Below are positions 24,639 to 63,168 of a DNA stretch of 64,000 bases, piece by piece. Under the pieces are notes generated by a model that saw only the letters and a list, made by a program, of their open reading frames with translations, had not been told where the DNA came from and did no database searches. Every line of letters starts with the position of its first letter. Positions within the stretch are counted from its first letter, which is position 1. The translations under genes and the position numbers were made by a program. Source of the stretch: Bugula neritina (taxonomy: Eukaryota > Animalia > Bryozoa); assembly GCA_964035545.1 (NCBI GenBank), contig OZ037772.1, forward strand, positions 3,439,538 to 3,503,537, written 5' to 3'.

Positions 24639-24643
<5 letters not shown>

Positions 24644-30741: not shown

Positions 30742-30742
30742 T

Positions 30743-30760
30743 TGGTGGCAGCGGTGGGAT
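30743..30760 (+). promoter_or_regulatory. Primer binding site (tRNA-Leu)
   Basis: TGGTGGCAGCGGTGGGAT, complementary to the 3' end ...AUCCCACCGCUGCCACCA of tRNA-Leu(AAG/UAG type). Confidence 0.9.
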
Positions 30761-30791
30761 TTTCGAATAACTAGTTGCCGAGCGGCGCGCA

Positions 30792-31427
30792 ATGGCCCCA
30801 GGGGACACAGCCCCTGAGGCAGCAACACCACCAGCCCTCACTGTTGAGGCGCTGGTCACAGCCCTCCAGGGATTGCGGGGGCAAGGACAGGCATCACCTG
30901 GTGACAGGTATCGCCTCCAGCCCCCGAATTTCGGAGGAGAAGGAGACGTAGAGCAATTCATCAGGGAGTTCCAGGATGTGGCCACCATCGCTGAATGGCC
31001 AGTACGGGTGCGCATCCTCCAACTTCGGGCCTGTCTGACAGGCCGGGCCAAGAGCTTCGCTCTTGGGCCTGATGAAGAGCACATCATGCGGGCTCTCAGA
31101 GCCCGGTTCGGCCTAACAGCCGAAGAAGCAGCTGATCGTTTGCAGATCATGAGGAGGGACCGGAGGACTCCCCTGGAAGACCACGCAAACGAGGTAGAGC
31201 GCCTGGCTCAGGCTGCTTTCGGTCACGCCACTGGCAATGACCGGAAGCGCCTCGTTTACAACGCGTTCTTCCGGAGCGTGAATCACCCGGACCTGCAGCG
31301 ATACTTTCTGGCCGCCAAGGTCAACAGTATAGAGGAAGCGCTGGAAATGGGGAAGGCTTACTTCCAGGTGGAAGAGCCTAGGCGACCGAGCTATACAGCC
31401 CGCCAGTACGAGCCTCGAGCCGTATGA
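30792..31427 (+). CDS. gag: Gag of element A, C-terminally truncated by an internal deletion
   Basis: Homologous to the gag of element B (DRYRL.PP.F.GE..VEQFI.EF). Lacks the CCHC knuckle. Confidence 0.88.
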   Translation: MAPGDTAPEAATPPALTVEALVTALQGLRGQGQASPGDRYRLQPPNFGGEGDVEQFIREFQDVATIAEWPVRVRILQLRACLTGRAKSFALGPDEEHIMRALRARFGLTAEEAADRLQIMRRDRRTPLEDHANEVERLAQAAFGHATGNDRKRLVYNAFFRSVNHPDLQRYFLAAKVNSIEEALEMGKAYFQVEEPRRPSYTARQYEPRAV

Positions 31428-34400
31428 AGGCGCGCATGGTACGTTGGCGGACGGATCATGCATCCCTTTCTACGGCGTCATTTCACTACCTGGACGCGTC
31501 CGTGATCAAGCAATTCACGAGACGTTCATAGTCAGCCAGCTGAAGGAGGACGCCATCCTGGGAATGCCGTTTCTGGAGAAACACCAGTGTCACATGGATT
31601 TCCAGAAGTCAGTGGTGGTGATGGCTGGGAAGGAGCTTGTCTGCGTCGACAAGTTCGGAAGGCCCTTGGTGGGCGGAGTCCAGGTAGTGCGGGACTGCAC
31701 GGTTCCGGGGAGATCCCAGGCGACTCTTCGCTGCAGAGTCAACTGCAAGGGGATCGCCGGCCTGGGGGTGGTTGAGGGAACGCACGGAGCGATCTGACTA
31801 GCAAACAGCCTAAATCGGCTAGATTGTCGGCAGGAGCTCCTCGTGCAGTGCATCAACCCCTTCACGGAACCTGTCCGATTATCGGCTGGAGCGCTGGTGG
31901 GGAAGTACCACTTCATCCAGGAAGCGGATGTGGGTCCGGCACTGGAGACAGTGGCCGACACCCAGGGGAACCCCCCTCACACCAGACGAGGAGCAGTCCC
32001 GGAGCATATGGCTGACCTATACGATGGAGCGTGCGGAAACTGTACAAGTAGTACTGAACGCCAAGTACTGGCTCAACTACTTGCAGAGTACAGTGATGTC
32101 TTCAGTCGTGGCGATGGAGACATGGGGCTGACCAAGGTCATCTCCCACGAGATACCCCTGGCAGCCGGCACCACTCCCATCAGGCAGCCTACCCGGCGTC
32201 TAGGCCCGGAGAAGGAGAAGGAGGTGAGCCGACAGGTACAGGATCTTCTCGACCGGGATCTGATTGAGCCTGCCCACGGTGCGTGGAGCTCTCCAGTAGT
32301 CCTGGTCAAGAAGAAGGATGGTAGCTGGAGATTCTGCGTGGACTACCGCAGACTCAACAGCGTTACCATCCAGGACGCCTACCCTCTCCCACGGATAGAT
32401 GAGTCTCTAGATGCCCTCGCGGGTAGCAAGTACTTCAGTACTTTGGATCTGCTTAGCGGGTACTGGCAAGTACCCCTCAGTCCTGATGCCCAGGACAAAG
32501 CAGCATTCATCACCCGCGACGGGCTCTGGAAGTGGAAAGTACTGCCATTTGGATTAACGTCCGCTCCGGCAACTTTCCAACGGCTCATGGAGCAGGTCCT
32601 CAGTGGGTTACACTGGAAGACCCTCCTCATCTATCTGGACAACGTCATTGTCATCTCCCCAGACTTCTCGACTCATGTCAGTCGTCTGCGGGAGGTCTTT
32701 GACCGTCTCCGGGCAGCTGGACTGAAGCTGAAGCCCTCCAAGTGTGCACTCCTGCAGCCGGAAGTCACGTACCTGGGCCATGTGGTTGGCCGTGATGGGG
32801 TCGCTACCGACCCGGAGAAGGTACAGGCTGTGAAGGAGTGGACTGTCCCCCGTAACCTCCCTGAGTTGCGCGCGTTCCTGGGCCTAGCAGGGTACTACCG
32901 GCAGTACATACCTGGCTTCGCAGGAGTGGCTCAGCCGTTGAATCGGCTGACCGCAAAGGGGGTCCGGTGGCAGTGGACACAGGAGGAGCAGCAGGCATTT
33001 GACCACCTTAAGCAGCGGCTAATGGAGGCGCCAATTCTGGCGTATCCTGACCCAGCCCAAGAGTACATCCTGGACACCGACGCCAGCGACCACAGCGTGG
33101 GAGCTGTCCTGTCTCAAGTCCAGGGTGGAAGTGAGGTGGTCGTGGCTTACTACAGCAAGACTCTCGCGGCCGCCGAGAAAAACTACTGCACCACTAGGAA
33201 GGAACTCCTAGCAGTAGTCAAGGCGGTCAAGCACTTTCGGCCATATCTGTATGGGAGAACGTTCCGTTTGCGAACAGACCATGCATCACTGATATGGCTG
33301 TGTAAACGTGCAGAGCCCTCGAGCCAGGTGGCTCGTTGGCTGGAGATTCTTGCCGAGTTCTCCTACCGGATAGAGCACCGTGCTGGCCGGAAGCACGGGA
33401 ACGCCGACGGCATAAGCCGCCGGCCGGTAGGAGACTGTAAGCAGTGCCTGCACATTGAGAAGCGGGACGGGGGACCCGCTCGCCTTGACGTGGAAACAGA
33501 GTTAGGGGAGGGCGCCGTCTATCGATGGGAGCACGGCCATCTTCGGACCGAAACCCACTCAGACGACGTCCAGGCGCTTCACGCCAACCCCACTCTGTAC
33601 CAGAACGTCAAGGAGTTGTGCCGACTCCAGGAGACGCTACCCGGCGCGGTAGCGGACATCTTCCGGGCTAAGAAGGAGGGCCAACGACCTAGCGAGGAAC
33701 AGCAGCGGCAGGGAGACGTTGAGTTCCAACTCCTCTGTCGTCGCTGGGATGCCCTCAAGGTCAGTCCTGATGGCCTCCTGATGATAACGTTAGCAGCAGA
33801 CAACCGTCAGCAGGAGAGGGACCGCGTCGTCTGTCCACGCGCCCTCCGACGGGAACTGATCTGGGACACCCATAAGCAGGCTCACTCTGGAGTCAGTCGG
33901 GTCATCAGGTGTCTGCGGCTGCGTTGGTATTGGCCCGGAATGACTCGGGACGTACGACTGCGGGTACGGCAATGCGAGGTCTGCCAAGCTAGCAAGCATG
34001 GCCGCCCCACGGAAACCACTGGTCGACGCCGGCTATACGCTGGTCGACCGTGGCAGGTAGTGGCGGTGGACCTCGTCGGGCCTATGCCGTTATCCGCCAG
34101 AAGGAACACCTGGATACTGGTGCTCACGGACCACTTTACCCGGTGGGCAGATGCTCTGGCTATTCCAGATGCAACAGCCCCCACGGTGGCCCGTACCCTG
34201 GACCAACATGTGTTCTGTTACCTCGGTTTACCCGAGCAGATACATACGGACCAGGGTGCCCAGTTCCAGTCCCAGCTCATGGGAGACCTCTGCCGGATAT
34301 GGGGGGTGAACCAGAGTCGGACCACCCCATATCACCCGCAAGGGAACGGAGTCGTCGAGCGGAACAACAGGATGTTGGGTGACGCCCTCAGGAGCCTGCT

Positions 34401-35745
34401 CCTTGGCCGAGGTCAGGAAGAATGGGACGTGGTGCTGCCGCAAATCATGCGGGCTTACCGCAGCACACCACACTCCGCCACGCAGGAGACCCCAAACTTC
34501 CTGGTGCTAGGCCGAGAGACGCGGGTTCCGGAACACCTGACATACCATGTTCCTGCCCCCGAGTCACCGGTACACAAATATGTGGAGGGTCTGATAGACA
34601 TCATGGGCAAAGCTCATGATGCACTGCGTACCCAGCAGTGGCAGACCCGCACAGAGGACTCGGAGGAGCCCCCGTTGTACCAGGTGGGAGACTGGGTCTG
34701 GATGGTGAGCTATCGTAGGCGACGCGGACAGTCGGCTAAGCTTCAGCCCAAGTTTGTCGGTCCCTACTGCGTGGTAGAGGTGCTGCCAAACCATACATAC
34801 CGTGTGGAGCGCTCTGGACAGGTCTCAGTCCAGAGCGAGCAGCGCCTGAAGCCGTACCAGGCCAGCCCAGACGCGGTGGGTCAAGCCCCACCCCTCCTGG
34901 AGCCCCACCGCCAGCCCAGCCGTCGAGTACAGGCCACCCGCCCTCGAGAGGTGGAAATTGTGTTCCCCAGAGAGATGGACCAGGAGCAAACCGCCCTGTT
35001 GGAGCAGCTAGAGCGACAACAGAGAGAGGAGCGGGAACAAGAACGACAGCAAGCCCTAGGACCACCACCCCTCCAGGGGGAGGACACCCCCACCCGTGTT
35101 ACGGGTGAAGGCGGGGACCCCCCTTCAGCGGTAGCTGAGGAGCCACCGGCACCAGCAGCACCTATACAGCAGGAACGGAGTCAGAGGGCCAGAAGGCCCC
35201 CCAGATATCTGGCGGACTACCACGTGGGACACATGGAGATGTCCCAACAGAGGAGTGGTACACCCAGTACGGGTAAAAACTCCGAGCCTAAGTTGCAGAA
35301 CAGCCCTGGCAGTACCGGACTTCTCCAAAAGCAATTACCCCCAGACCAGCACAGTCACCTGGACAACAGGTACCCAGCTCTTTCGGGTAATGTTGGCCGA
35401 GGTAGGTGGCGATACCCCATACCTATGGCTAACTTGGACCCCCCTCCAGAAGAAGAGGACGAGGCCACGACCCTACTACCCGCCCAGCTGATTGGAGATG
35501 GCGCTACCGCAGCCACCACCCAGCCTCTACGGGTAGCGCTGGCAAGACTGGGCAAGGAGCCTGGAGCACCAGGCAGCCAGATAGAAGAGAAAACCCAGCC
35601 GACCCACTCACAATTGCCCCGTCACGGGCAGAGTATGGCACTTCCTTATCGAGAGTGCGTCCTAGATAGTGCAATCCAGGCCTGGTCCGGTACCCTTGAC
35701 CGTTGTACAGAAGGGATAGAAAGCCTGGTGCACCACCTCAAATAA
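31408..35745 (+). pseudogene. pol: Pol of element A (partial protease, RT, RNaseH, integrase with GPY motif)
   Basis: RT motifs (WRFCVDYR, LPFGL) with YLDD mutated to YLDN at 32641. RNaseH DTDAS. Integrase HHCC, D-D-E and GPY. Stop at 31795-31797. Protease DSG motif missing. Confidence 0.95.
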
Positions 35746-35957
35746 CTGAACCGGACAATTGGGAGCCGCCAGCATTGGCCAGCCGGACTGTATATATTAC
35801 GGGTACTACTATCGTTTATATTATTGTGATACGTGTGACTAATCATAATACTTTCTGTTAATCGCATATTTTTCTACTTTTGTGTTTTATTTTTTTGTTT
35901 TCTTTTTGTTTTGTGTGAAATGATTGTTCTGTTATCGAAAAGAGGATGCTTTTCGAT

Positions 35958-35967
35958 GGGGGGAGAA
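35958..35967 (+). promoter_or_regulatory. Polypurine tract of element A
   Basis: GGGGGGAGAA immediately before the 3' LTR TGT. Confidence 0.85.
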
Positions 35968-36323
35968 TGTAATGGATTCTCATCCTCTATTGTTCTGAAA
36001 TAACTGCGTGCATCAGTATACTATAAATACTGTTGCGTATCGTATAATTACAGCATTAAGAACGATACGCAACAGTATTTATAGTTAGGTAAGCTAGCTT
36101 GCTAATGCCTAAGTATGGTGATTACTGTTAAGCTTTCAGCATAATGTAATTTTACTGAAATACGCATTCTGAAGTTATGTAATATTTTTTTTACTAATGT
36201 TGCTTTCTTTTGTGTGTGTCCTTTGTTGCTGAGATCGGCATTTCGGTTTTCCGAAATGCCGATATGCCGAAAATCGGCGTTTTGGCATTTCGGAGTCCCG
36301 AAATGCCGATATTCGGCATTTCG
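35968..36323 (+). repeat. Truncated 3' LTR of element A
   Basis: Matches 30184-30519 with a few substitutions and one inverted duplication. Similarity stops abruptly at 36323. Confidence 0.92.
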
Positions 36324-36932
36324 AGTGCACTCAATATCTCATGTTTACTCACGACAACCTGTTTGCTTAGCAGAATATTGGATATCCCATTCCTAACCTA
36401 GACTACACAATGTTCTCCAACCTATCACATGACACTAGTAAAACTATACAATTCAAGAAAATCAATGATGTATTTAAACATGAAAAATAACCCAATGTTG
36501 AGTCGACCGGCCTTTTAATTTGCAGTGAAATTTACTTGCACTCAATTCCCATAAAATAATGTTAAAATTGCATTTGAAATAGTCCGGCAGCCATACAGGC
36601 TCATCTGGTAATGTACGTCATTCGAAACATCAACAATTATATGTCCCAGATGTTGCAGCAGATAAATATTTCCAGGCTCATGGAGGTACCAGAAAAAATA
36701 GTAGGTAAATAAAAACTGTATGACCAGCAGCGTAAATAAATAAACTAATGTCTGGCAGATAAATGTAAGTAAAGTTTCAGATACGGACGCTGTACTGTTA
36801 GCATACATACTACACATAATATGTTGAGTTGAGTAAATAAGCAGGAAATAGTCATACAGGAAGTAGTTGCACAGAAAGTGATGAAACAGGAAGTGATGAA
36901 ACAGGAAGTAGTTGCACAGGAAGTACTGATAC

Positions 36933-37840
36933 CCTTCTCTGAGTGAGATAGAGTGTGAACACCGAGTGTGACCTTGAACTCTTGTCATGCATGCCGGTAC
37001 TGACAGTGGCACGCTGCCGATTACCCAGAGTCAGCAGTTTCTACGGAACATGAAACACATTTGATTACCAGCTGCAGAAGTCTTGAGATGTTCTCTTAAG
37101 TGAAATTAGTCCACAATTCTTTTCAAATAGATATAAAACATATATAAAAGTTTGAGAGTTGAAGTTTGAAGGCTATAATAATGCATACATTCTGTTTGTT
37201 GCTCGAGAAAGCTTTATTATTTGCCAGCAGATCGGGAATCTTCTCGTTGTAGATCTCAAAGAAAGATGTCTCCACATTCACAGAACACTGAAACATGAAG
37301 TAGACGACATAATGGCACTGCTGAAATATAATGCAGACATAAAACCATCACAACAAAGTCAAGGTAAAAAGATATTGTTGCTAAAAAGTTATGTATATAA
37401 TAATTTATTTCAGATTTGTGCAATTATTATGAAATAACACTCTATACTAGTCTATCGTCATCAAAACATAACTCTGATTAGCTACTCTGTGATAATGTTC
37501 CCTCTAATCTGTAGCTCAAAAAGAGTAAATAATAGCCTCAGTACCATCAGACTCACCACATTATTATTGGCGAACTGTAGCTTGTTGACCCTGTGAAACA
37601 GCTCTTCGGAGAATCTTGGTATAACTCCATCACCGCTGCTGTGTCCCATAATGCTGTAACTCTTCCCAGACCCTGTCTGGCCGTACACAAACAGACAAGT
37701 GTTGTAACCTTGAAACGCTCTCGTCAAAATGGGTTGGGCAACGCATCCATACAACCTCTGATGACTGGAGAATCCCGGGCTATGCGAGTCAAAAGAGTCG
37801 AACGAGCAGTCGTACTGAGACGTGTGTGCCGGACTGCTAT
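36933..37840 (-). pseudogene. KIF14: Kinesin-3 (KIF14-like) motor-domain fragment
   Basis: Exon 37557-37840: AFQGYNTCLFVYGQTGSGKSYSIMG, P-loop. Exon 37189-37287: SFFEIYNEKI.DLL. Exon 36933-37040: LGNRQRAT.STGM.DKSSRSHSVF, switch I. The LRVREHP..GPYV segment and switch II (DLAGSE) were not found. Confidence 0.75.
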
Positions 37841-40034
37841 CTGAAAGAATATGGGAAAGGCTACAAACAGCACAGCTAAACAGAGGTCAAAGGACATTCA
37901 AACAGGTGAAATACACTTTAATACAGCCGAACAGTAACTCAAATGAGTTTATGGAAGCTATATAAATGTTCATATTTCCTCTTAAGTGAAGAGGGGACAA
38001 CTCCACTGATTAGTTTAATAAACAAGTATTCCTTGTGAGACGCAGTGTTTGAGTGTATACTTGTGCTGGTTAAAGCAGAGTGTGAACAAAAGTATTTCAA
38101 ATACGTGGTCGCAGTGTCGTACTGACTAGGTGGAGTCCCCTACAACAGAAGCAGGGTGCTCTGTTGCAGATGAGACTGTTCATGTTGAGGAACTAAAAGA
38201 CCTGCCCTCACCACCACCAGCCATACAGTTGCCCCCCCCCCCCCCGACACTCATTTGGACTACTTCTACTGCTAGTATTTTGTGGAGCCTGATCCATGTA
38301 TAATAGAGTGACCTAGACCCACCGACTATCTTCTTCTCTCATCTCTCCGCCCTTCTCACCCTCCCGTCATAATAAGAGGAAGAGTTGCATTAGTCGGCTA
38401 CCAGTAATATAGAGGAGAGAGATTCAGACGCCGCGATCTCCAGCACTGATCACACAGCAATTAGGTCACTGCTATTATCAGTACATGCTATATTAGAAGT
38501 AGCAACATGGCTACCAACAACATAGCAATGTGCACTTCTTTCAACTCACCTGAGTGAACAGGAAGAGAAGTAAATGCTCTGCTTTGAGCTGATTGACTTC
38601 TGGTGCCATTACTAAATACTAGTTGAGTCACAGAATCTGGTAGTTTACTAAAACATACAAAGAAACAGTCAGACTTGCTTTTCAAGGTTTCTATATCAAA
38701 AATCATATTAATGTGAAGCATGATAAAAATAACTCAGTGTACATACTGTAAGTGAAAACAACATTTAAAGCAAGTGGGCTTATATGGTCAGAATTTGAGT
38801 AAAATACTCTTTAAGAAATCCTATGCCAACAAACACTGCGTGATAGATAACTTCTATTTAATTTTATAATCATTATTCTACAAAATTATATTTATTTTAC
38901 AAGCAAATTCAATAACTTTATCAAAAAAGTTCTATGATTATATGATCGATCAAAATCTCAGTAAAGATACAACTAATATACATAGTACTAAGATGTTATG
39001 AAGAGTAACTCAAATAATTCTAACATAGCTGTGTTTTATTACTTTGAGTTACAACAACAGTTGTGCTCAGACTAGACTGCGGATGTGTAAGATCGTTGTG
39101 CAGACAAAGCATCACAGTAAACATGCCTACTGTCACTGCCTTGACAAAACCTCATGTTACCCTGTATGCTAATCATATTGATAAAAGTTATTTTTAGTTG
39201 AATTAATTTTCCGGCTTATAGTATGAATCTGCACTTACGCCACATATTGGTTACTAGAGGGCGCTCCAGGTAGGCCAGTCTCATGCGCAGCGACAGAACC
39301 ATATTGATAACTTGACTGTGTGATAGGACTTTTATTACTGCAGCACGGTTAGGAAATTATGTCTATTAAAGTAAAGTCCGAAAAATTACAAAGAAATACA
39401 GTGATTGACTAGTTAGATATACATTAAATAAACATAATAAAACGCAGATAATAAATTATATACATGTTATTAAATTAAATTTTGTGACTAAAACAAAATC
39501 CTTGTAGCTATCCATGCTGATCTTTTGACAGCGGTATAAAAACAAGCACCTGTCACACATCCGGATTGGGCATTGTCTCCCCCGCCATGACTGACTCGCT
39601 TCTTAGACTGATCTGAAAATGCATCAATTGAGTAAAAAACAGGTTTGCATATTGCATAATAATATAAATGTTGACAAAAAGACATAAATTGAAAGTTAAA
39701 AGTTAAACTAATTATTGATAAGAAAGACTGGGTTCTTACAGCACCTACTTGAAAGGCACACTATTATATATAACTATATTTTTGTTGTACAGATCAACAT
39801 CTGCAGTTTTTCAGAGAAACTAAACTGAATTATGTTGTAAGGCTATTCATGCTATAGTTAACCACTACTATCAATCAATAAAAACAGAAACTGAAAATAT
39901 CTCTAGTTACTGTGACATTTCAAAAATGTTGTAAGAAAAATTATTCCAACTGGTAGAAATTGAAAAATTATATTTATAAAAATATTGCAACCTGTAGAAA
40001 ATTTCAAAAATGTTTTCAAACAAATCTAAATTTA

Positions 40035-41532: not shown

Positions 41533-43119
41533 GACATCATTTCCTTCCATATTACAACAGTAAGTAGATATATTATGATCAATACCAAAACTATGCCAAC
41601 CCAATTTCCAAACTACCATTCAGATTTGGCATGTAAGCCAATAAATTAATATGAATAGACTCATTTCAAACTATCACAAGAGTTTGCTATTTTATGATGC
41701 TGTAAGTAAACTGTGGTATAAAAATTAATGTAAAACACGCTTTTTAGTGACTGTAGTACATGTAGAACTAGTAGTTTCTCAAAATTTTATAATGCAAAAA
41801 ACTCTAAAATTTTATGCTGATTCATCAACTTATATTTTAATGTAGAATACCTCTATCCTCTTTTCTAACTGTAGATCACTCACTATCTATGTTTGTATAC
41901 ATATCATTTGTTAAAAGACTCTCAATTTATCAGATTATTTAAAACTACATTTTTCTCTTTATTTCACTTAAATTTCAACATAAAAATTCAATTGAGTATG
42001 AAATAACGTTAAAATTAACTTCAAGAATCTTGGTATGTTTTTAAAAATATAAAACCCTATTTCAAACTTTGATAATTTAGAAAAAATTAGTTTAAAATCA
42101 TTTGTATATAATTGCAGCAACAATTACTATTAGTTAATTGAAAAAGGTTTTGATTTAGCTGACCTATGGCTAATAATAAATTGTTCAAATTTTTGTACAC
42201 GTGTCACCAACTTTAAATTACTTAGTTTACAAATACTTTTGCTGGTCTTAAGAGTCTATCGATGATAAAAATAGTCTTTCCTTCCACAAGTGAGCTAACA
42301 TTGAAATCAACATTTATTTGATCTTGTCTTCAGCTTCTGCCCAGATATGGCAATTTCAACTTGCTAAACCAAAATTGAAAAGTTCATTTCTATCATTATT
42401 GCATATGAAATGAGCATTTCGCAGTTGAACTCATCAGAAATGACAGAATTAATATGAAAAAAATGAAATACAGTTTAAATTAGATCAAATTTGTTTGCAG
42501 TTTTACTGCATTGTCATGGCCCATGAGCATAATATCAACATGTATACAGCTAATAGCATGACTGTTTTACTACTAATATTATAAGTTTTTACTTTCAGCA
42601 TAATCGACTATTACACTTACTATAGCAATAGGCATGGTCAATGACCATAAATTAAGTGTTAGCATGGCTATCAGTAATAAGTACAGCATAATAGATTATT
42701 ATTATAAATGTATTTATACAAATAGTAACGGTAATACTAAAAGTAATATTTTTAGCTATAATTGGTATCCACCAGTTTGCACTACAATTTTAAATTACAT
42801 ACAGCTTCAACTTGAAAGTAAGAGTGAAACGTTTAATAGTTATTACTATAACTATGACTAATAAGATTAGTATAATATGGTAAACCTGATACTTAACCTA
42901 TTTGTAGATTCTAAACTTTTAAATTAGACCTAATAGTAATAGTAATAGTAGTAGCAGCAACCTTGCGGTAACTCCTACAGTTAATCCTAGTTCTATCATC
43001 TATCAGTATCATTATGATTATCATTATGATTATTACTATCAGTATCAGTACCACCATCACCATGACTTCAAGTCTAAAACTATTACTATGAGTATCAGTA
43101 TGACTGACTGTGAGAGTAT

Positions 43120-43425
43120 TGTTATAGTTTTCAGATTTAGGGTTGATATGCTATCCAGAGAGTCTATTTATCTAGTATAGAACTACACCAGGCTAAGTCG
43201 AGTGAACGAGTATATTTTATACACAACTATACATTATAAAAACACGATACATTATTTCTAACAAGTTACACATCTAATCTATTTCACACTCTAGCTTCGA
43301 CTGAGTTAGCAGCGGGAAACTACAATTGCTGCTAACTATCAACTACGCTAATTGGCTATCCATTGTTCCGGGTCAATTACGCGACCCTACATGTTGTGCT
43401 GCTGGTAGTTCCACGAACCACCACA
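43120..43425 (-). repeat. 3' LTR of element B
   Basis: Preceded on the minus strand by a G-rich PPT, GGTGGGGGCGG (43426-43436). Confidence 0.95.
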
Positions 43426-43714
43426 CCGCCCCCACCAGCAGAAAGCCATCTTTCTGATATATATATAAAAAAAAACATTCAATAGTAATTGCATACATCA
43501 GTGGACAAAAATAATACATAATATACAGGAAGAGACATAATAATAGACAGAGTCACTGTAACGATCCGTTGCATACAATTGGCCAGCTGTAGATAGACGA
43601 GGAATACTAGCTAGCTGTGGTATTAGACAAGGAATAACCTGTCTAGCAGTTAAGCATTTGCACGATTTTGGTTCCTCACCAAATGTGGAGTTGTGGAGTA
43701 TTCTGGGTAGCATA

Positions 43715-44502
43715 CTAGAGTCCTTGTTGGGCACGCCGGTGCTTGGCTTGGCATGTACGCAGTTTCCGTTTCATACGGCATACAGATCCCTTGAGCTGGA
43801 AGAGTCCTGTGGTAGTGTTGAGTAGATCTGGTGCCAGCTGGGTGAACTCTTCTTGTAATCGTAGGAGGCGTTCTTCTACTGTAGCTAGTCGTACCGGGTC
43901 TGGGGATGGTGTCCGTCTGCGGCGTAAGGGTGGACTGGGGGACCTGGTCCGTCTCTTCGCCGGGGTAGGGGAGATCTCTCCTTCTTCTGGATATGTAGTT
44001 TCCTCGGGGGTGTATGTAATTGGAGGGCGGTCAGATACCAGCGGGGATTGTTGGCGGGCGTTGTCTAACACACGTTGGAACCCCGAGGATAGAACGGCTA
44101 ATAGCATGGCCTTCTTTACCAGAGGTCGTATATATGTGAGGAACTCCGGGTACAGCTTAGCGTCGACCACATAGTTTTCTCCAGGGAAACAGCCCGCCGC
44201 TCTGTGTCTGGTGACGGGGTAGGGATACACATCATTGTACCCGCAGGGGCAGAAGGTCAGTAGGAGATGAGCATTGACGTGTAGTTTAAGGGAGCGGTGA
44301 GAGGCGCAATCTTCACCACAGATCTGGCATCTCGTCCGTCCTCTGGACCCCCAGGCTGTTTCTATTTCTTCTTCGGTTTGTGGAGACACCCACCGCCAAC
44401 GGCGGCGTAGTGGCTCAGGCCGGTCACCACTAGCATAGTCCTCCGGATACGGAGCGGGAAGTGTTCTATCCCGTACCCTGGTTGTAGCGGGTCGAGTGTA
44501 AT
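43715..44502 (-). CDS. ORF3 of element B: C2H2 zinc-finger, Arg/Ser/Pro-rich and coiled-coil protein, probably spliced
   Basis: Stop-free GC-rich frame with C-X2-C-X12-H-X3-H, then C-X-C-X12-H-X4-C, KRRTRSPSPPLRRRRTPSP and a heptad-like C-terminus. Starts after a TTTTTCAG acceptor. Confidence 0.75.
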
Positions 44503-44815
44503 CTGAAAAAGTTTCAATAGTGTTAGTACAGTACACTGCTGTGTTGTCAGCTTGAACAGCTTGGCAACTCCTAATTCAGTTACCTCGTAGAGATTAATGA
44601 TAGTGAATAGTCAGATAGAACCGTATTGCAATGAGATTATAAAAATCTCTAAGTCAAACTGAGTTCTTACTACGGTATTTCACTAACCTATCTCCAGCTC
44701 GATTGACTCAGTGAGTCAGAGCTGAGCGATGCAATCTAGTTTCGTATTAAGATATAGTTAACTCACCCCACGATCTGTTGTCGTAAGACATACTGAATAT
44801 GTGAAATGGTTTGAA

Positions 44816-47800
44816 CTACTGCTTAGAAACACGTCTACTCTTGACTGCATCAGCGTATGAAAAGATCGAGCAACGTGGTTGGGGTGCGTGATTAAGACTT
44901 TGTGCACCCGGCGGATGAATTTTATTTCTATTTCCGCCGATGTAAAAGTTGATATTTCCGTGGTGTTGACAACTCCCACATTTGCTCGAATCTTTTCTCG
45001 TACGGCTTTCCCCTAGACTTTTATGCGTGCCGCTTTTAACGCAGTCACATACGAAGTCCTTCAAGTATGCGGGGGGTTGCCTCGTACGCTGTCCCCTTTC
45101 TAGGGGGGGTGACACGCTTGCCGGTTCGTTAGTAGGGGCCTCTAATGGCGTCTCTACTTCACCGTCAGCGGTCACCTCTTCTTGTTCTCCGGATGGAGCC
45201 CCTCCCTCCGTGGGGGTTTGCACTTCCGGAACCGGCTCGGTTTCCGGAAGTGATGGAATTAGACTTGGCGGTGGCGGACACGCTTCTGTTGGTAGAAGCT
45301 GCCGCTCCTCTCTCACCAAGTTTTCTTCCCGCGGTATGACCACTTCGTATTCAGGTCCATGCCGCCGTCGCCCGCGCGTTGTTGTCTGCCTCCTGGGCTC
45401 TAACAACGGGGGGGCTTATCCCACTCCGCCGGGGCTAGCCCAATACGGTTTCAAGCGAGACTCATTCTGGACAGATACCTGTCCTGAGCGCTCGATCTTG
45501 TACGTATGATTGGGCATAGCCTTGATGACCACGTAGGGGCCTACGAACTTAGGCTTCAGCTTATCAGCCTGTCCGCGGCGCCTACGGTAATTGACCATCC
45601 ACACCTTATCTCCCCTTTGATAGAGAGGGGGTTCATCGGAATCTTCGTGCCGCACCTTCCACTGCTGTTGACGCAGTATCTCGTGTGCGGCCTTCATCCG
45701 TTCCACTAGTTCACTGGCATACTCGTGGACTGAGTTATCCTGCTCTGGAACGTGATAGGTGAGATGGTCAGGGACACGAGTCTCCCTCCCGAGCATCAAG
45801 AGGTTTGGGGTCTCACCAGTACTGGTGTGTGGGGTGATACGGTATGCACGCATGACTTGCGGCAACACCGTATCCCATTCCTCTTGACCTCGTCTAAGGA
45901 GGAGACTCCGGAGCGCATCACCTAGCATCCGGTTGTTGCGCTCCACCACCCCGTTACCTTGAGGGTGGTAGGGGGTGGTCCTGCTCTGATTTACTCCCCA
46001 GAGGTGGCAAAGGTCGCTCATCAGTTGAGACTGGAATTGAGCGCCTTGATTAGAGTGTATCTGTTCGGGAAGCCCAAAATAACAGAATACATGTTGGTCT
46101 AGTGCCCTGGCCACTGTTGGGGCTGATGCATCTGGGATAGCCAGAGCATCCGACCACCTAGTAAAGTGGTCGGTTAGTACTAGGATCCAATTATTGCCTC
46201 TGGGGGTCAGGGGCATGGGTCCGACCAGGTCTACAGCGACTACCTGCCAGGGCCTACCAGCATATAGCCTCCGCCGTCCTGCTTCACCAGGGGGGCGGCT
46301 ATGCTTACTGGCCTGGCAGATCTCACACTGTTTGACTCTGAGCCGGACGTCACGCTCCATCTGCGGCCAATACCACCGGAGTCGTAATTTGGACATCACT
46401 CGCTTGACCCCTGCGTGGGCCTGCTTGTGAGTATCCCAAATCAACTCACGGCGGATGGCTGTGGGGCAGACTACCCTCTTCCTTTCCGGGTGTCTGCCGC
46501 TGGCAGCTAGAGAGATGGTTAGCAACCCATCCTGCCCGATCCGCAGCGAGTCCCAACGCTGACAGTATAGCCGGAACTCGGCGCATCCCTGTCGTATGCG
46601 TTCCTCGCTGGGTCGTCGCCCTTCCCGTTTGGCCCGGTATATGTCTGCCACGACTCCAGGCAGCTCTTCTTGGAGCTTCTTCAGCTCTCGAACATTACCG
46701 GCCAGTACAGGGTTGGCGCGGAGGTTTTGTACATCCTCCGGGGACTCATCAACTCTTTGCCTGAGTTGACCTTGATCCCAGTCAAACGATGCTCCGTGAT
46801 GAGCCAGCGTCTCCAACTCGCATCGCGGGGGACCTCCATCCCTCCTCTCGATGTTGAGACACTGTTTGCAACCTCCGTCAGGTCGGCGACTCAACCCATC
46901 CGCATTGCTGTGTCTCTTGCCCGGTCGATGTTCGATCCGGTATGAGAATTCAGCTAGGATTTCGAGCCACCGGGCGACCTGACTAGAGGGCTCTGCTCTC
47001 CTGCACAACCAGATCAGCGAGGCATGATCTGTACGCAGCCGGAACTTCCTGCCATATATGTATGGTCTGAAGTGCTTCACTGACTTGATTACTGCCAGCA
47101 GCTCCTTGCGGGTAGTGCAGTAATTTCGTTCAGCGGGAGAGAGAGACTTGCTGTAGTAGGCTACTACTACCTCTCGGCCTTCCTGCACTTGTGACAACAC
47201 AGCGCCAACATTCTGGTCACTGGCGTCCGTGTCTAGGATGTACTCCAGAGTGGGGTCTGGGTAGGCCAAGATGGGCGCCGTTAGTAGGCAGCCCTTGAGG
47301 CGGTCGAACGCTTCTTGTTCGACTGGAGTCCACTGCCACGTCACTCCCTTTGCGGTGAGCCAGTTTAACGGCTGGGCTATGCCCGCAAAGTCTGGTATGT
47401 ATTGCCTGTAATACCCTACCAGCCCCAAGAAAGCCCGGAGTCCGGTCAAGTCTTGGGGGGTGACCCAGTCTTCTACTGCCCGTACCTTTTCGGGATCCGT
47501 TGCCACGCCGTTTCGACCGACAACGTGCCCCAGGTACTTGACCTCCGGCTGCAACAGAGCGCACTTGGAAGGTTTGAGCTTAAGACCGGCACCTCGGAGT
47601 CTCTCGAAAACCTCCTGCAGACGACTGACATGTGTCTCGAAGTCTGGAGAGATTACGATGACATCATCGAGGTAGACCAGCAGTGTCTTCCAATGGAGTC
47701 CGCTAAGGACTTGTTCCATCAGCCTCTGGAAGGTGGCTGGGGCGGAGGTTAACCCGAAGGGCAGCACCTTCCACTTCCACAAACCGTCCCGTGTGATAAA

Positions 47801-49383
47801 CGCCGCTTTCTCCTGGGCGTCGGGACTCAGAGGAACCTGCCAATAGCCGCTTAGCAAGTCTAACGTACTGAAGTACTTGCTGCCGGCTAGGGCGTCCAAT
47901 GACTCGTCAATACGAGGTAGAGGGTAGGCGTCCTGTATAGTTACGCTATTGAGTTTGCGGTAGTCCACACAGAACCGTTAACTGCCGTCTTTCTTCCGGA
48001 CCAGTACGACTGGCGAGCTCCACGCACTATGGGCGGGCTCTATCAGTCCCCGGTCCAGAAGATCCCGTACTTGTCGGCTAACCTCCTTCTCTTTCTCCGG
48101 CCCCAGCCTGCGCGTAGGCTGCCGGACAGGGACTGTCCCTGCAGTCAGCGGTATTTCGTGTCTGACAACTCCAGTCAGTCCCACGTCATGCTCTCCGCTG
48201 CTGAACACATCACCGTAGTCGCGTAGTAACTTGGCCATAGCTTGGCGCTCTCTGTTATTGCGCAGCCGCTACTGGCTGTTTCGTATAACTCCCGGAGATG
48301 TGTTGGGACTGCCCCTCGTCCCTGAATAGGGTGTCGAGGGAGTGCCTCTGTCGCATCACCCAGCGACGGGCCTACGTCTCCCTCCTGAACAGAGTGAAAA
48401 CGGCCCAGCATCGACCCAGCCGGGAGCTTGATAAGCTCGGTAAAGGGGTCGACGCACTGCACTAAGATCTCCCCTTGCTCAGTCAGCTGATTCAGACTGC
48501 TGGCAAGTTGGATCTTTTCGTGCGCGCCTTCAACCACCCCGAGTCCAGAGATCCGGCTACTATTCACCCTGCAGTGAATTGTAGCCCGGGAGCGGCCTGG
48601 TATGGTACGGTTGCGTACCACTTGCACACCTCCCACTAAAGGGCAGCCGAACTTGTCGACGCAGGCGAGTTCCCGCCCGGACATCATCATTGCAGATCTG
48701 CTAAAATCTATGTGACATCCGTGCCGTTTAAGGAACGGCATCCCGAGGATAGCATCCTCCTTGAGCTGACTGACGATGAACGTCTCTTGGATCGTTTGAT
48801 CGCGGACTCGTCCCGTCAGCTCAATTATACCATAGAAGGGAAGGCACGACCCGTCAGCTAGGGTGCCGTATTCCCCTTCGTATGCTTCCATCTCGCCCCT
48901 GACCCTAGCGCTGAGGGTGTCGAAGAGTTGGCGGCTTAAGAGGTTTGTGGTACAGCCCGAATCAATGAGAAAAGTAACAGCTTTGCCTTCCAGTTTACCG
49001 GGCAAGAAATAGCTGTTCCCATGGGGCTGCACCTGAACTCTCCCTTCAGGCCTTACTCTCGCAGGGAGTACCTCCCTCGCTTTGGGTCGCGAAGGAGGTC
49101 TCTTGGGGCGGTGATAGGTAGGCCTCGGGGGTGCCGAGGCTAGATTCTCAGCTACCTTTGTGTGCTCCCATCCAGATTCTTGGACTTGTAGCCCTGTGAA
49201 TCTGTTGTGAAGGGGCACAGAAAAGGCAGCCGCGGGGCGAAGCCCCTTGCTGGTCCGTCGTGGCTGTTGCCACTGTTGGTTGCCAGTACGCGGTACCCGT
49301 CTGGGTGACCTGCGTTTCTTCTTCCCTAGAGGTTTCGTCGGCCCGCGGAAGGTGGGAACATCTGCGGGCCGCGGTAGTTTAAC
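44816..49383 (-). pseudogene. pol: Pol of element B (protease, RT, RNaseH, integrase), disrupted
   Basis: Protease FLIDSG, RT YLDD, RNaseH DTDAS, integrase HHCC and GPY. Lesions: 1-bp frameshift ~48260, TAA at 47978-47980, integrase D-to-N at 46049-46051, TAA at 45416-45418. Confidence 0.95.
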
Positions 49384-50285
49384 CCCTGATTTAGGAAGGG
49401 ACAATATCGGCGGAAATGTCCTTGATTTCCGCACTCCCAGCAAAAACTGACTGTTTCTCCCTGTGGCGGCGCCGATGGCCGCATGGGCTCAGGGGCGGTA
49501 CTCACTGGGTTTGGTGGTGTCAGTGTTGCTATCAGCTTGGCTAGCATGTCCGTCAGTTGAGTGACTTTTGATGCCGTCGCCAACTGGGACACGGCAGCCG
49601 CGGCGGGGGTTTCCTCCCCTTGTCCCGCGGCCGTGTCTGCGCGGTCTATCTCCACTTGGCGGGAGTTTCCGCGGCTTTTATGCATTTGGTTAGCTAGGAG
49701 GTAAGCTTCCCCCTCAGTCAGAGCATCTTCAACGGTGGTGACTCCCCTAGCTAGAAACTGATGGTGGAGACCCAGATCGTCGACAGATGCTATGAAAGCG
49801 TCGAGGGTGTACCTCTCGCGGTTGACTGGGGGCAAGTCGCTGTACGCGATCTGTGCCAGCTTCATGACCGCGGCGGCATGCTCCCGCAGCGGGGTGCGGG
49901 GATCACGCCGCAACCTCTGCAATCGGGCCCTGGCATCTGTAGCAGAGAGGCCAAAGCGGGCCCGCAGAGAAGCAAAGATATTATCAATGTCTACGCCCAG
50001 CCCATAGGGCTTGGCTTTGTCCATCAATGCCATTCTAAGCTTCAACAGGGCCACCCTAGGGGGCCACTGAGCGACGTCCATTACGTCGCTAAACTCTTGG
50101 ATAAATTGTTCCACCTCCTCCTCACCCGTGAAGGTGGGCGCCTTTAACCTGTAGCGGTCTTCAGCTAGTTCTCGCGGAACCCTTCGCTCTTCTACTACAT
50201 GGTTAACAGGCATTGTCTCTACAGCATTGTCTCTACGCTCACCTTCGATTGCCGGTGGTTGAGTTCCAGCATTTTCAGTCTCCAT
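49326..50285 (-). CDS. gag: Gag of element B (319 aa)
   Basis: Intact ORF starting at ATG, with a capsid-like region and CCHC knuckle CWECGNQGHFRRYC. Confidence 0.93.
   Translation of the reverse strand: METENAGTQPPAIEGERRDNAVETMPVNHVVEERRVPRELAEDRYRLKAPTFTGEEEVEQFIQEFSDVMDVAQWPPRVALLKLRMALMDKAKPYGLGVDIDNIFASLRARFGLSATDARARLQRLRRDPRTPLREHAAAVMKLAQIAYSDLPPVNRERYTLDAFIASVDDLGLHHQFLARGVTTVEDALTEGEAYLLANQMHKSRGNSRQVEIDRADTAAGQGEETPAAAAVSQLATASKVTQLTDMLAKLIATLTPPNPVSTAPEPMRPSAPPQGETVSFCWECGNQGHFRRYCPFLNQGLNYRGPQMFPPSAGRRNL
49339..49383 (-). promoter_or_regulatory. Putative -1 ribosomal frameshift signal (gag-pol)
   Basis: G_UUA_AAC in the gag frame (49383-49377), a 5-nt spacer, then a GC-rich stem CGGCCCGC/GCGGGCCG. 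Pol overlaps in the -1 frame. Confidence 0.7.
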
Positions 50286-50297: not shown

Positions 50298-50315
50298 ATC
50301 CCACCGCTGCCACCA
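50298..50315 (-). promoter_or_regulatory. Primer binding site (tRNA-Leu) of element B
   Basis: Minus strand reads TGGTGGCAGCGGTGGGAT, identical to the PBS of element A. Confidence 0.9.
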
Positions 50316-50316: not shown

Positions 50317-50622
50317 TGTTATAGTTTTCAGATTTAGGGTTGATATGCTATCCAGAGAGTCTATTTATCTAGTATAGAACTACACCAGGCTAAGTCGAGT
50401 GAACGAGTATATTTTATACACAACTATACATTATAAAAACACGATACATTATTTCTAACAAGTTACACATCTAATCTATTTCACACTCTAGCTTCGACTG
50501 AGTTAGCAGCGGGAAACTACAATTGCTGCTAACTATCAACTACGCTAATTGGCTATCCATTGTTCCGGGTCAATTACGCGACCCTACATGTTGTGCTGCT
50601 GGTAGTTCCACGAACCACCACA
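50317..50622 (-). repeat. 5' LTR of element B
   Basis: Adjacent to the PBS. No difference from 43120-43425 seen. Confidence 0.95.
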
Positions 50623-51572
50623 GTATCACCACCACTATGAGTGGTGGTGATAGTGAGTATCACTATCACTACAATACTTAATTAGTTACTTATAGTTATA
50701 CTTATACTGTGAGTTATACTACTATCACTATCAGTATCACTACGACTATCACTATCACTATCAGTATAACATTAACTATGACTATCAGTATCAGTATCCG
50801 TCTTCTTGGGTTAGGCAAATTTTCAACTTCTGCGCTGGGATGAAAATTCAACTAATTTTATTTTCAAAGCTCACGTTTAAGGAACTACAGTGCAAGCAAA
50901 AATTATCTAATATCGATGCTTAAAAACAAAAAGAAAACCTATCCATTTCAATTCAACTAATGCCTTGGGCTTGTAGCTTACTCAATGTTGCCTAACAATT
51001 CACAACATCCGCTGCGTCTTTATTGTTAGCTAGGGAACCAAAAATTCGAACGGCCTACATAACGTTTTTCAGACTAGGGGGCTTGTTTTTTGTGTTATGT
51101 ATTATAATCTTTTCCACCGATCTTCTCAATTTGTTTTTATGACCATGGGCAAGGCCAAGGTTTCTCCCGCGGATCTGCAGCAAAAATGAAGAGGAATGTT
51201 GTGAAACAGAAGTTGCATTTGTGTAGTTTATCATTAATATTATTATTAATGATATTAGTTATTGATAATATTAATTATTATTAATAATTTCTTGAATTTT
51301 ATACTCATAATGATATGATTATGTCTATTTATTATTATATCCATATAATTACCATAATATCAATTATAATGATAATCATAATCATAATGATAGTTACCTC
51401 CAGTTACCTCCAGATTACGATCATGCTAGACCACTAGGTAGCAGAAGCGGCATGCCTCATATGTTTACGGTTGGTCAGAAAGTAAAATGCATACAATAGA
51501 TCATAAATTGGTTGCAGTGTGTGTTGCAGTATTGTTTATTAGTACGGGTAAGTTAACCTGTCAATATTTAGA

Positions 51573-54692: not shown

Positions 54693-55220
54693 TCACTATA
54701 CCTGTCTAATTACAAATATTGACAGAAGAAGACTTTAGTATTGTAAACAAGTGTAGAGTTTTATTTACTGGGAAGTGGTTTGTTTTACCCCCTCATAAGT
54801 GCAGAGAGGTGAATTTTCAGTTTCATGGAAACAGTTGATTTAGTTTATACAAAACACTCTCAATGCACTCTTCTAGAATACAAAGTTACAAGCTACAGGC
54901 TACAAAGTTATATAAGACATGCGTTATTGGAGGTGAAAAAGGTTTTATTTTCTCTTTTTATTTTTCTTTATTTACTGATTATAGATATTTATTTTAAAAA
55001 GTTTTTGTCAACCACTGGGATTTTCTGTCCAATGCCATGCTAACATGTTTATCTGATTGACAGGTGGGCGTGGCTTGGGTAGATGTGGGCGGAGTTGAAC
55101 ACAGGTTCCGGTGCGATACGGAAGGAAACAGATATGGTGTGAATGACGAAGAGTATTTAACTTTCAACCGGATGGAGTACTTGAATCAGGATAACCAATC
55201 AGTGTATGCTAACATCAGGT

Positions 55221-56233
55221 ATGATAATACTAGTAATACACATGATAATACTAGTAATACACATGATAATACTAGTGATACACATGATAATACTAGTAAC
55301 ACACATGATAATACTAGTAATACACATGATAATACTAGTAATACACATGATAATACTAGTAATACACATGATACTACTAGTAATACATATGATAATACTA
55401 GTAATACACATGATAATACTAGTAATACACATGATACTACTAGTAATACATATGATAATACTAGTAATACACATGATAATACTAGTAATACATATGATAC
55501 TACTAGTAATACACATGATAATACTAGTGATACACATGATAATACTAGTAACACACATGATAATACTAGTAATACACATGATAATACTAGTAATACACAT
55601 GATACTACTAGTAATACATATGATAATACTAGTAATACACATGATAATACTAGTAATACACATGATAATACTAGTAATACATATGATAATACTAGTAATA
55701 CACATGATAATACTAGTAATACACATGATAATACTAGTAATACACATGATAATACTAGTAATACATATGATAATACTAGTAATACACATGATAATACTAG
55801 TAATACATATGATACTACTAGTAATACACATGATAATACTAGTGATACACATGATAATACTAGTAACACACATGATAATACTAGTAATACACATGATAAT
55901 ACTAGTAATACACATGATAATACTAGTAATACACATGATAATACTAGTAATACATATGATAATACTAGTAATACACATGATAATACTAGTAATACACATG
56001 ATAATACTAGTAATACATATGATAATACTAGTAATACACATGATAATACTAGTAATACACATGATAATACTAGTAATACACATGATACTACTAGTAATAC
56101 ACATAACAATACTAGTAATACACATGATACTACTAGTAACACATATGATACTACTAGTAATACACATGATAATACTAGTAATACACATGATAATACTAGT
56201 AATACACATGATAATACTAGTAACACATATGAT
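55221..56233. repeat. 21-bp minisatellite (ATGATAATACTAGTAATACAC)n, ~48 copies
   Basis: Seen directly. Explains the repetitive ORFs on both strands. Confidence 0.98.
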
Positions 56234-57009
56234 AGGGCTAATAATAAATATTATGCCCAAAGCTTGAGGAGAAATCTTTGAACAAGTCAACAGTAGACAT
56301 TGTGACATCCTTGGCAATTAAAATAACAAACTTCTTTATACCAACACTAGCTTGTCCTATTCTACTTTGAATACTCATATTATGAATATCTGACGTATGT
56401 TTTACTAGGAAACAGAGGACTGTGTGGTGGTCTATGGAGTAGAATACGTCTGACTGAGAGTCCCAAACACTGATGCGGGCGGTGACTTTTAGCAGTGTTA
56501 CAAGTTCTGTACCTCTGAGGCTCAATGTCAAGGGATTCCAGGGTTCACCTGCCACCTTAGTGAGTTGTCTTCTCACAGCATACAGTTTATTAGTTTGTGT
56601 GAAGCAAAAGGAATATTCCTTGAAGTATGCTTATCAACTACCTAGTATGCTGAAACAAATGTGGGTTTTTAGTGTATAAGTGCTTTCTGACTCTCATCAG
56701 TTTGTATAATACAAGAACACAGTAGAATCACTAAATTGGTATAACATAGAGATATGTTCATCAGAAATGTACATGATGTAGCAGTGCAGCTCAATGAAGT
56801 CATTCGGAAAATTAAATGATGTTCTTTTAGACATTGCTCTGTAGAACTCAGACTGAGCATGTGACATCCAGGTTCCGAGTGTATTACCATCAGTGGTGGA
56901 GAGGAAGGAGGTTGTTGGTGTACAGGGGGTACTCACTACTGCAACGGAGCTTGTGTACCTGACATGACTAGTAAGTGTGTATCTACAGACAAGCAGAGTG
57001 ACAGATGAA

Positions 57010-61777: not shown

Positions 61778-62059
61778 TTATCCTTATGCAGCCCAGAGAG
61801 AAACTCAGTCATCATGAACTTCAATGTAAATAATTTTAATATAAAATAATACATATTATGATATAATATAATATTATATTACTCTTTCGGGATAATCATT
61901 CTATTTATATTAACACCTGTTTATTTGAAGTACTTTAATAAGTTTTACTTTAAATTTATTTCTCAAACCAGCATGTCAGTTAAATATAAAAGTACAATCA
62001 CACATACAACATGTAGACATGTAGTGATATACATTATAAAGCATATCATGTTGGTGAAT

Positions 62060-63168
62060 TGCTATACAGTATATTATGTTATACATTATATTATGTTATA
62101 CAGTATATTATGCTATACAGTATATTATGCTATACAGTATACTATGTTATACAGTATAATATGTTATACAGTGTATTATGTTATACAGTATACTATGTTA
62201 TACAGTATATTATGTTATACAGTATACTATGTTATACAGTATAATATTTTATACAGTGTATTATGTTATACAGTATACTATGTTATACAGTATATTATGT
62301 TATACAGTATACTATGTTATACAGTATACTATGTTATACAGTATAATATTTTATACAGTGTATTATGTTATACAGTATACTATGTTATACAGTATATTAT
62401 GTTATACAGTATACTATGTTATACAGTATATTATGTTATACAGTATATTGTGTTATACAGTATATTATGTTATACAGTATACTATGCTATACAGTATATT
62501 ATGTTATACAGTATACTATATTATACAGTATACTATGTTATACAGTATATTATGTTATACAGTATACTATGTTATACAGTATACTATGTTATACAGTATA
62601 TTGTGTTATACAGTATATTGTGTTATACAGTATATTATGTCATACAGTATATGCTATGTTATACAGTATATTATGTTATACAGTAAACTATATTATACAG
62701 TATACTATGTTATACAGTATACTATGTTATACAGTATACTATGTTATACAGTATACTATGTTATACAGTATACTATGTTATACAGTATATTGTGTTATAC
62801 AGTATATTGTGTTATACAGTATACTGTGTTATACAGTATATTATGTTATACAGTATACTATGTTATACAGTATATTATGTTATACAGTATACTATGTTAT
62901 ACAGTATACTATGTTATACAGTATACTATGTTATACAGTATATTATGTCATACAGTATATTATGTTATACAGTGTATTATGTTATACAGTATATTATGTT
63001 ATACAGTATACTATGTTATACAGTATACTATGTTATACAGTATACTATGTTATACAGTATACTATGTTATACAGTATATGCTATGTTATACAGTATATGC
63101 TATGTTATACAGTATATTATGTTATACAGTATACTATGTTTTACAGTATATTTTGTCATACAGTATAC
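62060..63168. repeat. 17-bp minisatellite (GTTATACAGTATAYTAT)n, ~65 copies
   Basis: Seen directly. The 17-aa periodicity of the overlapping ORFs equals 3 x 17 bp. Confidence 0.98.

Follow-up and report, generated by a model that had tools for sequence, protein, structure and literature searches.

What does a gypsy retrotransposon encode in the position of env when the protein found there does not resemble an envelope? The question is raised by a 64,000-nt stretch of the genome of the bryozoan Bugula neritina (GenBank assembly GCA_964035545.1, contig OZ037772.1, positions 3,439,538 to 3,503,537), hereafter the window, which carries a complete Ty3/gypsy insertion, element B, on its minus strand (50622-43120). 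A preliminary description of this DNA had pointed to a third open reading frame (ORF3) between pol and the polypurine tract (PPT) of element B, and had proposed that it is joined by splicing to the start of gag and encodes a nuclear regulator. Judging from sequence comparison, ORF3 is a real and conserved accessory gene of a gypsy lineage; it is very probably spliced, and its product belongs to a protein family that has no name.

ORF3 and its predicted splice signals

The ORF3 frame is stop-free for 286 codons (minus strand, 44575-43715), 261 of them past the predicted acceptor, in agreement with the roughly 262 codons and the coordinates first reported. Because only 1 of 20,000 base shuffles left 44500-43718 stop-free, the length of the frame exceeds chance. 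Its composition is coding-like (56% GC, 62% at the first position) and its flanks are AT-rich. As the preliminary description had also stated, ORF3 has no usable ATG, the only in-frame Met codons (44107 and 43774) lying downstream of both of its zinc fingers. Read-through from pol was considered and is ruled out by six stops in the frame that pol and ORF3 share, from 44818 to 44578.

The proposed donor and acceptor (Table 1) both exist, and joining 50243 to 44502 gives 276 amino acids (aa) that remain open until the stop at 43715; a match in phase is expected by chance alone in one case in three. The donor is the only site in element B that scores at least 8/9 against MAG/GTRAGT. The acceptor is preceded by a spacer with a GC content of 38%, compared with 54-57% in the coding parts, and this spacer contains a TACTAAC branch-point consensus (44528-44522) that had been missed before. 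The motif occurred at such a distance in 378 of 100,000 shuffled spacers. It counts solely because the acceptor had been named beforehand: window-wide, the pattern was seen twice against 0.57 expected, and 15 of 100 shuffles reached two, which is not significant. A second TACTAAC with a pyrimidine-AG site, which shares the phase of the ORF3 acceptor, is present in the pol tail (45100-45134, minus strand). Its use would fuse gag exon 1 with the end portion of that tail; it may be a chance occurrence.

ORF3 represents a conserved protein family

A word-indexed search with ORF3 returned 72 proteins at E <=0.001, most of them 46-60% identical, and an exhaustive HMMER search returned 102, including approximately 57 at 25-40% identity. 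Close and distant relatives alike retain the two-finger zinc module, and the seven-heptad zipper with its Arg-rich end is a feature of the close ones. Conservation is unevenly distributed along the protein: among 32 close relatives, the zipper (mean identity 73%) and the zinc module (57%) are better kept than the linker (28%) and the N-terminus (21%). Across 90 aligned sequences, the conservation of a Trp and of seven of the eight presumed zinc ligands is 90% or higher. The ligands hardly vary even at about 30% identity (kept by 28-32 of 30-32 close relatives and by 52-56 of 55-56 distant ones), with the last Cys kept in 38 of 54 distant sequences. Several supported subfamilies emerged from a tree of 44 rows, which comprised close relatives of at least 200 aa among P0002-P0046 together with seven distant ones. 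Because this region-specific pattern holds across subfamilies about 50% apart, the protein appears to have been under long selection, with the caveat that database proteins are open frames by construction. These comparisons support ORF3 as a gene conserved within the element family and counter a recent neutral capture from the host, which had been named at the outset as one of the outcomes that would undo the idea. By contrast, the observation that ORF3 is open beside a broken pol, although correct in that three pol breaks are seen, is not by itself evidence, as a 788-nt exon 2 would escape lesions with P = 0.60 at the pol lesion rate.

Linkage of ORF3 to gag in the sister subfamilies is indirect. 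Three of the 12 ORF3 matches on contigs of at least 5.5 kb have a Gag match on an equally long contig (null mean 0.06, reached in 0/20,000), and over contigs of every size there were 4 such matches against 1.35 expected (P = 0.047). Scans with the ORF3 alignment gave 216 pattern matches in metagenome contigs and 32 in viral contigs, none confirmed; the integrase alignment gave 248 in metagenome contigs, likewise none confirmed, and pol had no match in viral contigs. In alignments of the distant relatives, conservation nowhere sufficed for such a scan. No description of the family was found in a literature search whose scope did not extend to Repbase reports, subscription journals and supplements.

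A relative with the joined form, and conserved residues at the predicted splice sites

We regard the splice between the gag exon and ORF3 as highly probable on comparative grounds. The most direct evidence is P0024, a protein from a 5,320-nt JGI contig, whose first 14 residues are identical to the start of the Gag protein P0127 (14/14) and run gap-free into the ORF3 junction motif. Its exon length (14 codons) and junction position are those predicted for element B, and it belongs to a sister subfamily only 53-54% identical in ORF3. Among 120 Gag matches, 22 have a start that matches P0024 at 11 or more residues. Since its contig exceeds the predicted mRNA in length, a retroposed copy of spliced RNA is the likeliest source of P0024; a deletion at the shared AG is a less likely one.

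The residues encoded at the two splice sites are also conserved. Gag matches that have an N-terminus (66 of the 120) keep the E-G-E specified by the donor at frequencies of 56/65, 58/66 and 66/66, making it the most conserved part of a variable region whose six preceding columns reach 35-54%. On the other side, the acceptor-coding residues F/L-S/L precede the junction motif in 21 of the 24 relatives where the motif was found.

Three points nevertheless weigh against the splice and the reading built on it. The subgenomic splice first proposed is backed by P0024 and by the conserved donor- and acceptor-coding residues, but the listed joints of two public runs (15 out of 115 in one and 15 out of 176 in the other) do not include the 50243/44502 junction. 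The joined Gag-ORF3 form occurs in only 1 of 166 relatives, P0024, which is known as a protein alone. Finally, 29 of 33 close relatives have a Met no more than 30 residues ahead of the Trp helix, a count that is partly a gene-caller effect, since callers start at Met. Sister subfamilies might thus also start internally; P0001, P0002 and P0048, the nearest relatives of the element B protein, have no internal Met before the module. RNA run X1 (word share 0.10) yielded 19-20 short contigs of depth ~2-7, one of them on ORF3 (44136-44354), and was not used as evidence, since DNA carry-over is possible. Contigs from run X2 span all of ORF3, with a summed depth of the same order as that of gag, which is not a measure of copy number.

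The ORF3 protein combines a zinc module with a zipper-like helix

AlphaFold2, a check suggested in the preliminary description, gave a confident and compact module of about 130 residues (predicted local distance difference test, pLDDT, 94; predicted template modelling score, pTM, 0.87), followed by a disordered linker and a single 59-residue helix with seven conserved heptads. Finger 1, initially called perfect, does have C2H2 spacing (C-x2-C-x12-H-x3-H), but its Pfam score is 13.2 bits against a cut-off of 25.2, and the usual aromatic residue is missing. The other elements attributed to the protein, namely a second atypical finger (CPC-X12-H-X4-C), a basic Ser-Pro stretch and a coiled-coil-like end, are all present. 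Both fingers form part of one compact unit with extra helices. Five hydrophobic-rich residues separate them and a TGEKP-type linker is absent. At helix position 6, 30 of 31 close relatives have Leu and 32 of 56 distant ones Val, and basic residues are kept at positions 2 and 5, plus position 3 in distant members.

Downstream of the module, basic clusters are common (25/32 close and 17/28 distant relatives), and the zipper ends with 6-9 Lys or Arg in 16 residues in 54 of 56 relatives. Of 61 close relatives, only 3 have the particular basic tract in the linker, and one of these is the same protein as that of element B. The likeness of its RRRTPSP motif to the C-terminal domain of hepadnavirus core, drawn in the preliminary description, is therefore superficial: the tract is subfamily-specific and the model contains no capsid domain. 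Neither a signal peptide nor a transmembrane stretch is present in the protein, as first noted; the top 19-residue hydropathy, 1.24, falls within an amphipathic helix, and the one N-glycosylation sequon is inside the zipper. Identity with env is rejected on these grounds, there being a zinc module instead of a signal peptide or membrane anchor, and the modelled protein looks soluble and nuclear rather than env-like.

No known fold was recognized. Pfam gave only below-cut-off matches for the family and the ESM Atlas only matches under 0.9 for ORF3; fold searches against the PDB and a viral library returned no significant match, and none by Foldseek at E <=0.001. The weak alignments obtained place both fingers on tandem C2H2 pairs (best Z 3.6, root-mean-square deviation 3.5, 58 residues). 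A homodimer prediction that did not use the alignment scored 0.10 against a mark of 0.32 and counts neither way.

Comparison with known systems

The closest precedent, not named in the preliminary description, is CERV of the C. elegans element Cer1. According to PMC10309623, a spliced mRNA joins Gag-frame exons to an ORF in the env position, and the product, in which a Cys finger and a zipper are combined with a basic localisation signal and with a phospho-Ser that is essential, is required for export of genomic RNA. CERV is described there as a protein of 517 aa from five exons, with a C4-type loop, a G-protein-like domain and a zipper in the half shared with Gag, and as having no homology outside nematodes; the same text states that the env-position ORFs of long terminal repeat (LTR) retrotransposons mostly have no homology or known function (PMC10309623). 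ORF3 resembles CERV in being a non-envelope ORF in the env position of a gypsy element, in being joined to a Gag-frame exon (predicted here, and seen in the P0024 protein), and in having a Cys-containing finger, a leucine zipper, a basic stretch and an S-P site. Unlike CERV, it is predicted to consist of two exons and 276 aa, its module is of the C2H2 plus CxC-H-C kind and its zipper is C-terminal; it lacks the H, M, G architecture and has no room for a G domain. The function of CERV has been demonstrated, whereas we infer that of ORF3. Among 30 distant or joined relatives of ORF3 that were looked up, no nematode-named protein was found; the three that carry an organism name come from Watersipora subatra and Bugula neritina. 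ORF3 follows the same gene logic with a different protein and is not a CERV by architecture; the logic of splicing a gag exon to a regulator is itself already known through CERV.

Other env-position genes are less similar. The env of errantiviruses and simple retroviruses is made by a splice with a donor near the 5' end (PMC10309623). Like env of Drosophila gypsy, an errantivirus, and of simple retroviruses, ORF3 lies between pol and the PPT on the sense strand; unlike errantiviral env, it has a zinc module and neither a signal peptide nor a transmembrane stretch.

Regulators of the Rev and Tas types are small proteins made from spliced RNA. ORF3 resembles them in being the small product of a predicted spliced RNA, with an Arg-rich helix and a helix for oligomerisation, and differs in having no sequence or fold match to them and no clear export signal or response element. 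The complex-retrovirus regulators listed in PMC7264820 are Rev, Rex and Rec for export and Tas, Tat and Tax for transactivation. Plant gypsy elements, too, can have additional ORFs on their 3' side (Grande gene23, RIRE2, Retand), of which those in sense are env-like and those in antisense are nuclear with a promoter of their own (PMC7264820); compared with these, ORF3 is in sense, soluble and predicted to be joined to gag. In two surveys of annelid LTR elements, no zinc-finger ORF was found by keyword in the main text (PMC8556966, PMC8220671).

The same arrangement of Trp helix, C2H2 finger and CxC-H finger, at about 30% identity, occurs in gene models from two bryozoans (XP_067940963/4 and XP_067944745 from Watersipora subatra and KAF6040923 from Bugula neritina), which are annotated as host genes, are longer than ORF3 and include two with tandem modules and one that ends in a coil. 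The bryozoan gene models P0199, P0286, P0247 and P0287 carry one or two copies of the module. The Watersipora model P0247 and the Bugula model P0287 have a common N-terminal domain as well (E = 2e-8 over this region). These sequences suggest that a host gene family gave or received the zinc module of ORF3. The family defines an unnamed module common to elements and apparent host genes.

Possible functions of the ORF3 product

The preliminary proposal of a nuclear regulator is supported insofar as the protein is soluble, nuclear-looking and not env-like; which of the three functions named there it would serve is something that we infer. We tentatively favor, at somewhat short of an even chance, a Rev- or CERV-like factor that helps genomic RNA to escape splicing and to leave the nucleus. 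Spliced ORF3 RNA would be the default early product, because the donor is strong, the branch point perfect and the acceptor T-rich. The protein would then enter the nucleus by means of its basic stretches, oligomerise through the zipper and bind element RNA by the zinc module, the Arg-rich helix or both, and this binding would shift output to unspliced RNA for Gag, frameshifted Gag-Pol and packaging. With its pol broken, the element B copy would still make Gag and the ORF3 protein, the enzymes being supplied by other copies. The absence of a TGEKP-type linker, the hydrophobic helix position 6 and the Arg-rich helix end favor RNA over DNA as the ligand. We rank export first because a nuclear, oligomeric, Arg-rich feedback product follows the logic of Rev and CERV.

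Set against the export reading, no strongly structured response element was found in the spacer (z = -2.3) or the LTR (z = 0.3, by which a structured LTR was rejected), nor was a convincing nuclear export signal found in the protein, where loose pattern matches lie inside helices only. The weak structural matches are to DNA-binding tandem C2H2 pairs (Z 2.6-3.6, not significant), and the profile matches in sequence are to single fingers of DNA-binding factors. Element A, a sister element in the window, spread without an ORF3 gene, and in Drosophila gypsy and in simple retroviruses the splicing of env is not known to involve a Rev-like protein.

The next possibility, less probable in our view, is that the product is a transcription factor that binds LTR DNA, either as a transactivator like Tas of foamy viruses or as an autorepressor. 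One possible form of it is a zipper dimer that offers two finger pairs to repeated LTR sites. A DNA-binding module combined with a coiled coil is a common layout of transcription factors, and bryozoan gene models carry the same module, one with a C-terminal coil. The fingers align to pairs in Kaiso, SALL4, ZNF524 and CTCF over 50-58 residues at 2.6-4.1 Å, with basic residues kept at helix positions 2 and 5 (and 3 in distant members). However, these alignments all have Z <4 and are non-significant, helix position 6 is Leu or Val, the linker between the fingers is short and hydrophobic, and the fingers are embedded in a single compact fold that includes further helices. In addition, the basic stretch comes after the zipper, and in basic leucine zipper (bZIP) proteins it comes before.

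It is unlikely that ORF3 instead encodes an anti-silencing factor or adaptor whose module binds a chromatin or piRNA-pathway protein while its zipper serves as decoy or bridge. The non-canonical recognition helix would suit protein binding, and the related modules in apparent Watersipora and Bugula host genes mean that an element copy could mimic a host protein; yet no partner or target was found, and the strong conservation of zipper and ligands is probably unlike that of the usual arms-race interface. Still more doubtful is a role inside particles or during integration, for instance as another nucleocapsid-like protein or as a factor that targets integration, expressed separately from Pol. 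Zinc fingers, an Arg-rich helix and a Gag N-terminus in common are compatible with it, as is the position of ORF3 in the frame of the pol tail, possibly a relic of a former fusion. Against it are the six stops between the pol tail and ORF3, the lack of any RT (reverse transcriptase) or integrase domain in all 57 distant relatives, the mere 14 residues shared with Gag, and the lack of a form fused to pol among proteins of 1044-2980 residues, which, from a weak search, is weak evidence. Least probable is that ORF3 is a functionless passenger from a host gene with a cryptic splice, for which host-like genes with the module, database proteins open by construction and a junction absent among the joints listed in two runs might speak, but which sits poorly with region-specific conservation across subfamilies ~50% apart, with a donor kept inside Gag and an acceptor kept before ORF3, and with the joined form in P0024.

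In the literature consulted, CERV is the only env-position ORF of a gypsy element with a shown regulatory role. The ORF3 family would be a second case, of different structure. It offers a defined arrangement of exons, a domain modelled with confidence and numerous natural variants, and it makes the repeated origin of Rev-like or Tas-like regulation outside retroviruses testable. In a broader version, which we consider possible but doubtful, gypsy elements of marine invertebrates independently evolved regulation of the complex-retrovirus kind, comprising a zinc-module and zipper family, a default gag-exon splice, a switch from spliced to genomic RNA and a module exchanged with host genes conserved across bryozoan genera. 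The ORF3 family would then be unrelated to Rev or CERV, and its named relatives are bryozoan.

Anatomy of element B

In element B, gag precedes a pol whose domains run from protease through RT and RNase H to integrase, as expected of Ty3/gypsy elements, and its identical LTRs and 4-bp target duplication mark it as a young insertion. Features are collected in Table 1. We take its primer-binding site to be of the tRNA-Leu type. The pol frame is -1 relative to gag, and the GC-rich hairpin in their overlap has z = -2.0, with 4 of 200 shuffles folding equally well; the heptamer is presumably that of the equine arteritis virus frameshift site. The breaks in pol lie near 48257, at 47978-47980 and at 45416-45418. 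Because nearly all of the depth in run X2 reads otherwise at the two stops among these breaks, the stops are features of the element B copy and not of the family.

Table 1. Coordinates of element B, its predicted splice signals and the parts of ORF3
Feature	Position	Strand	Remarks
5' LTR	50317..50622	-	306 bp; TG...CA ends; identical to 3' LTR over 306 bp
3' LTR	43120..43425	-	306-bp identity with 5' LTR
Target-site duplication, 4 bp	50623..50626, partner 43116-43119	-	
Primer-binding site, 18 nt	50298..50315	-	same 18-mer after element A 5' LTR; 0 expected by chance
Polypurine tract	43426..43436	-	precedes 3' LTR
gag	49326..50285	-	319 codons, open; CCHC knuckle
pol (protease, RT, RNase H, integrase, tail)	44816..49488	-	three frame breaks in element B
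Candidate -1 frameshift signal	49337..49383	-	G UUA AAC and downstream hairpin; gag-pol overlap
Exon 1, coding part (predicted)	50243..50285	-	43 nt: 14 gag codons + 1 nt; common to Gag and ORF3 product
Predicted splice donor AAG/GTGAGC	50237..50245	-	exon end 50243; encodes E-G-E in Gag
AT-rich non-coding spacer	44503..44815	-	3' end of predicted 5,740-nt intron
Branch-point consensus TACTAAC	44522..44528	-	20 nt upstream of acceptor
Predicted splice acceptor (C)TTTTTCAG	44503..44511	-	AG at 44504-44503; T-rich
Exon 2 (predicted) / ORF3	43715..44502	-	788 nt including stop
Zinc module	44117..44419	-	Trp helix, C-x2-C-x12-H-x3-H finger, C-x-C-x12-H-x4-C finger, V-D strand
Variable linker	43901..44044	-	seven S/T-P sites, subfamily basic tract; low pLDDT, disordered in model
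Leucine-zipper-like helix	43721..43897	-	Arg/Lys-rich end; heptads at 205, 212, 219, 226, 233, 240, 247

Element B sits in a degenerate array of short GATACT/GATAGT-like repeats (42900-43119 and 50623-50800), possibly a preferred insertion target. A solo LTR at 28824-29163, on the plus strand and thus in the opposite orientation, is ~80% identical to the element B LTR and has no matching 4-bp flanks. The two have a hairpin in common at the LTR start (50597-50622, minus strand, and 28824-28849, plus strand), with one compensatory change between them, in a comparison of two sequences only.

Element A and the rest of the window

Element A (30182-36330, plus strand) is a sister gypsy element that has its primer site in common with element B and is 75% identical to it in integrase. 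An internal deletion near 31427 removes the end of its gag, and it has a long in-frame pol tail. The ORF3 family profile gives only one match in the six frames of the window, so that element A has no ORF3, and no splice donor is present near its gag start. Because it has neither, ORF3 can be regarded as an accessory gene, and element A provides a natural comparison without it.

Between the two elements, exons at 36852-37886 (minus strand) encode GQTGSGKS and SSRSH motifs and presumably belong to a host kinesin motor gene. A tandem segmental duplication occupies 844-12229 and 15276-26660, with a period of ~14.4 kb and 93-99% identity, and includes, near 1272-2101 and 15720-16558, the decayed remains of a gag-like sequence. 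At 55074-56400 and 61900-63200 there are long minisatellites, whose periods are 21 and 17 bp.

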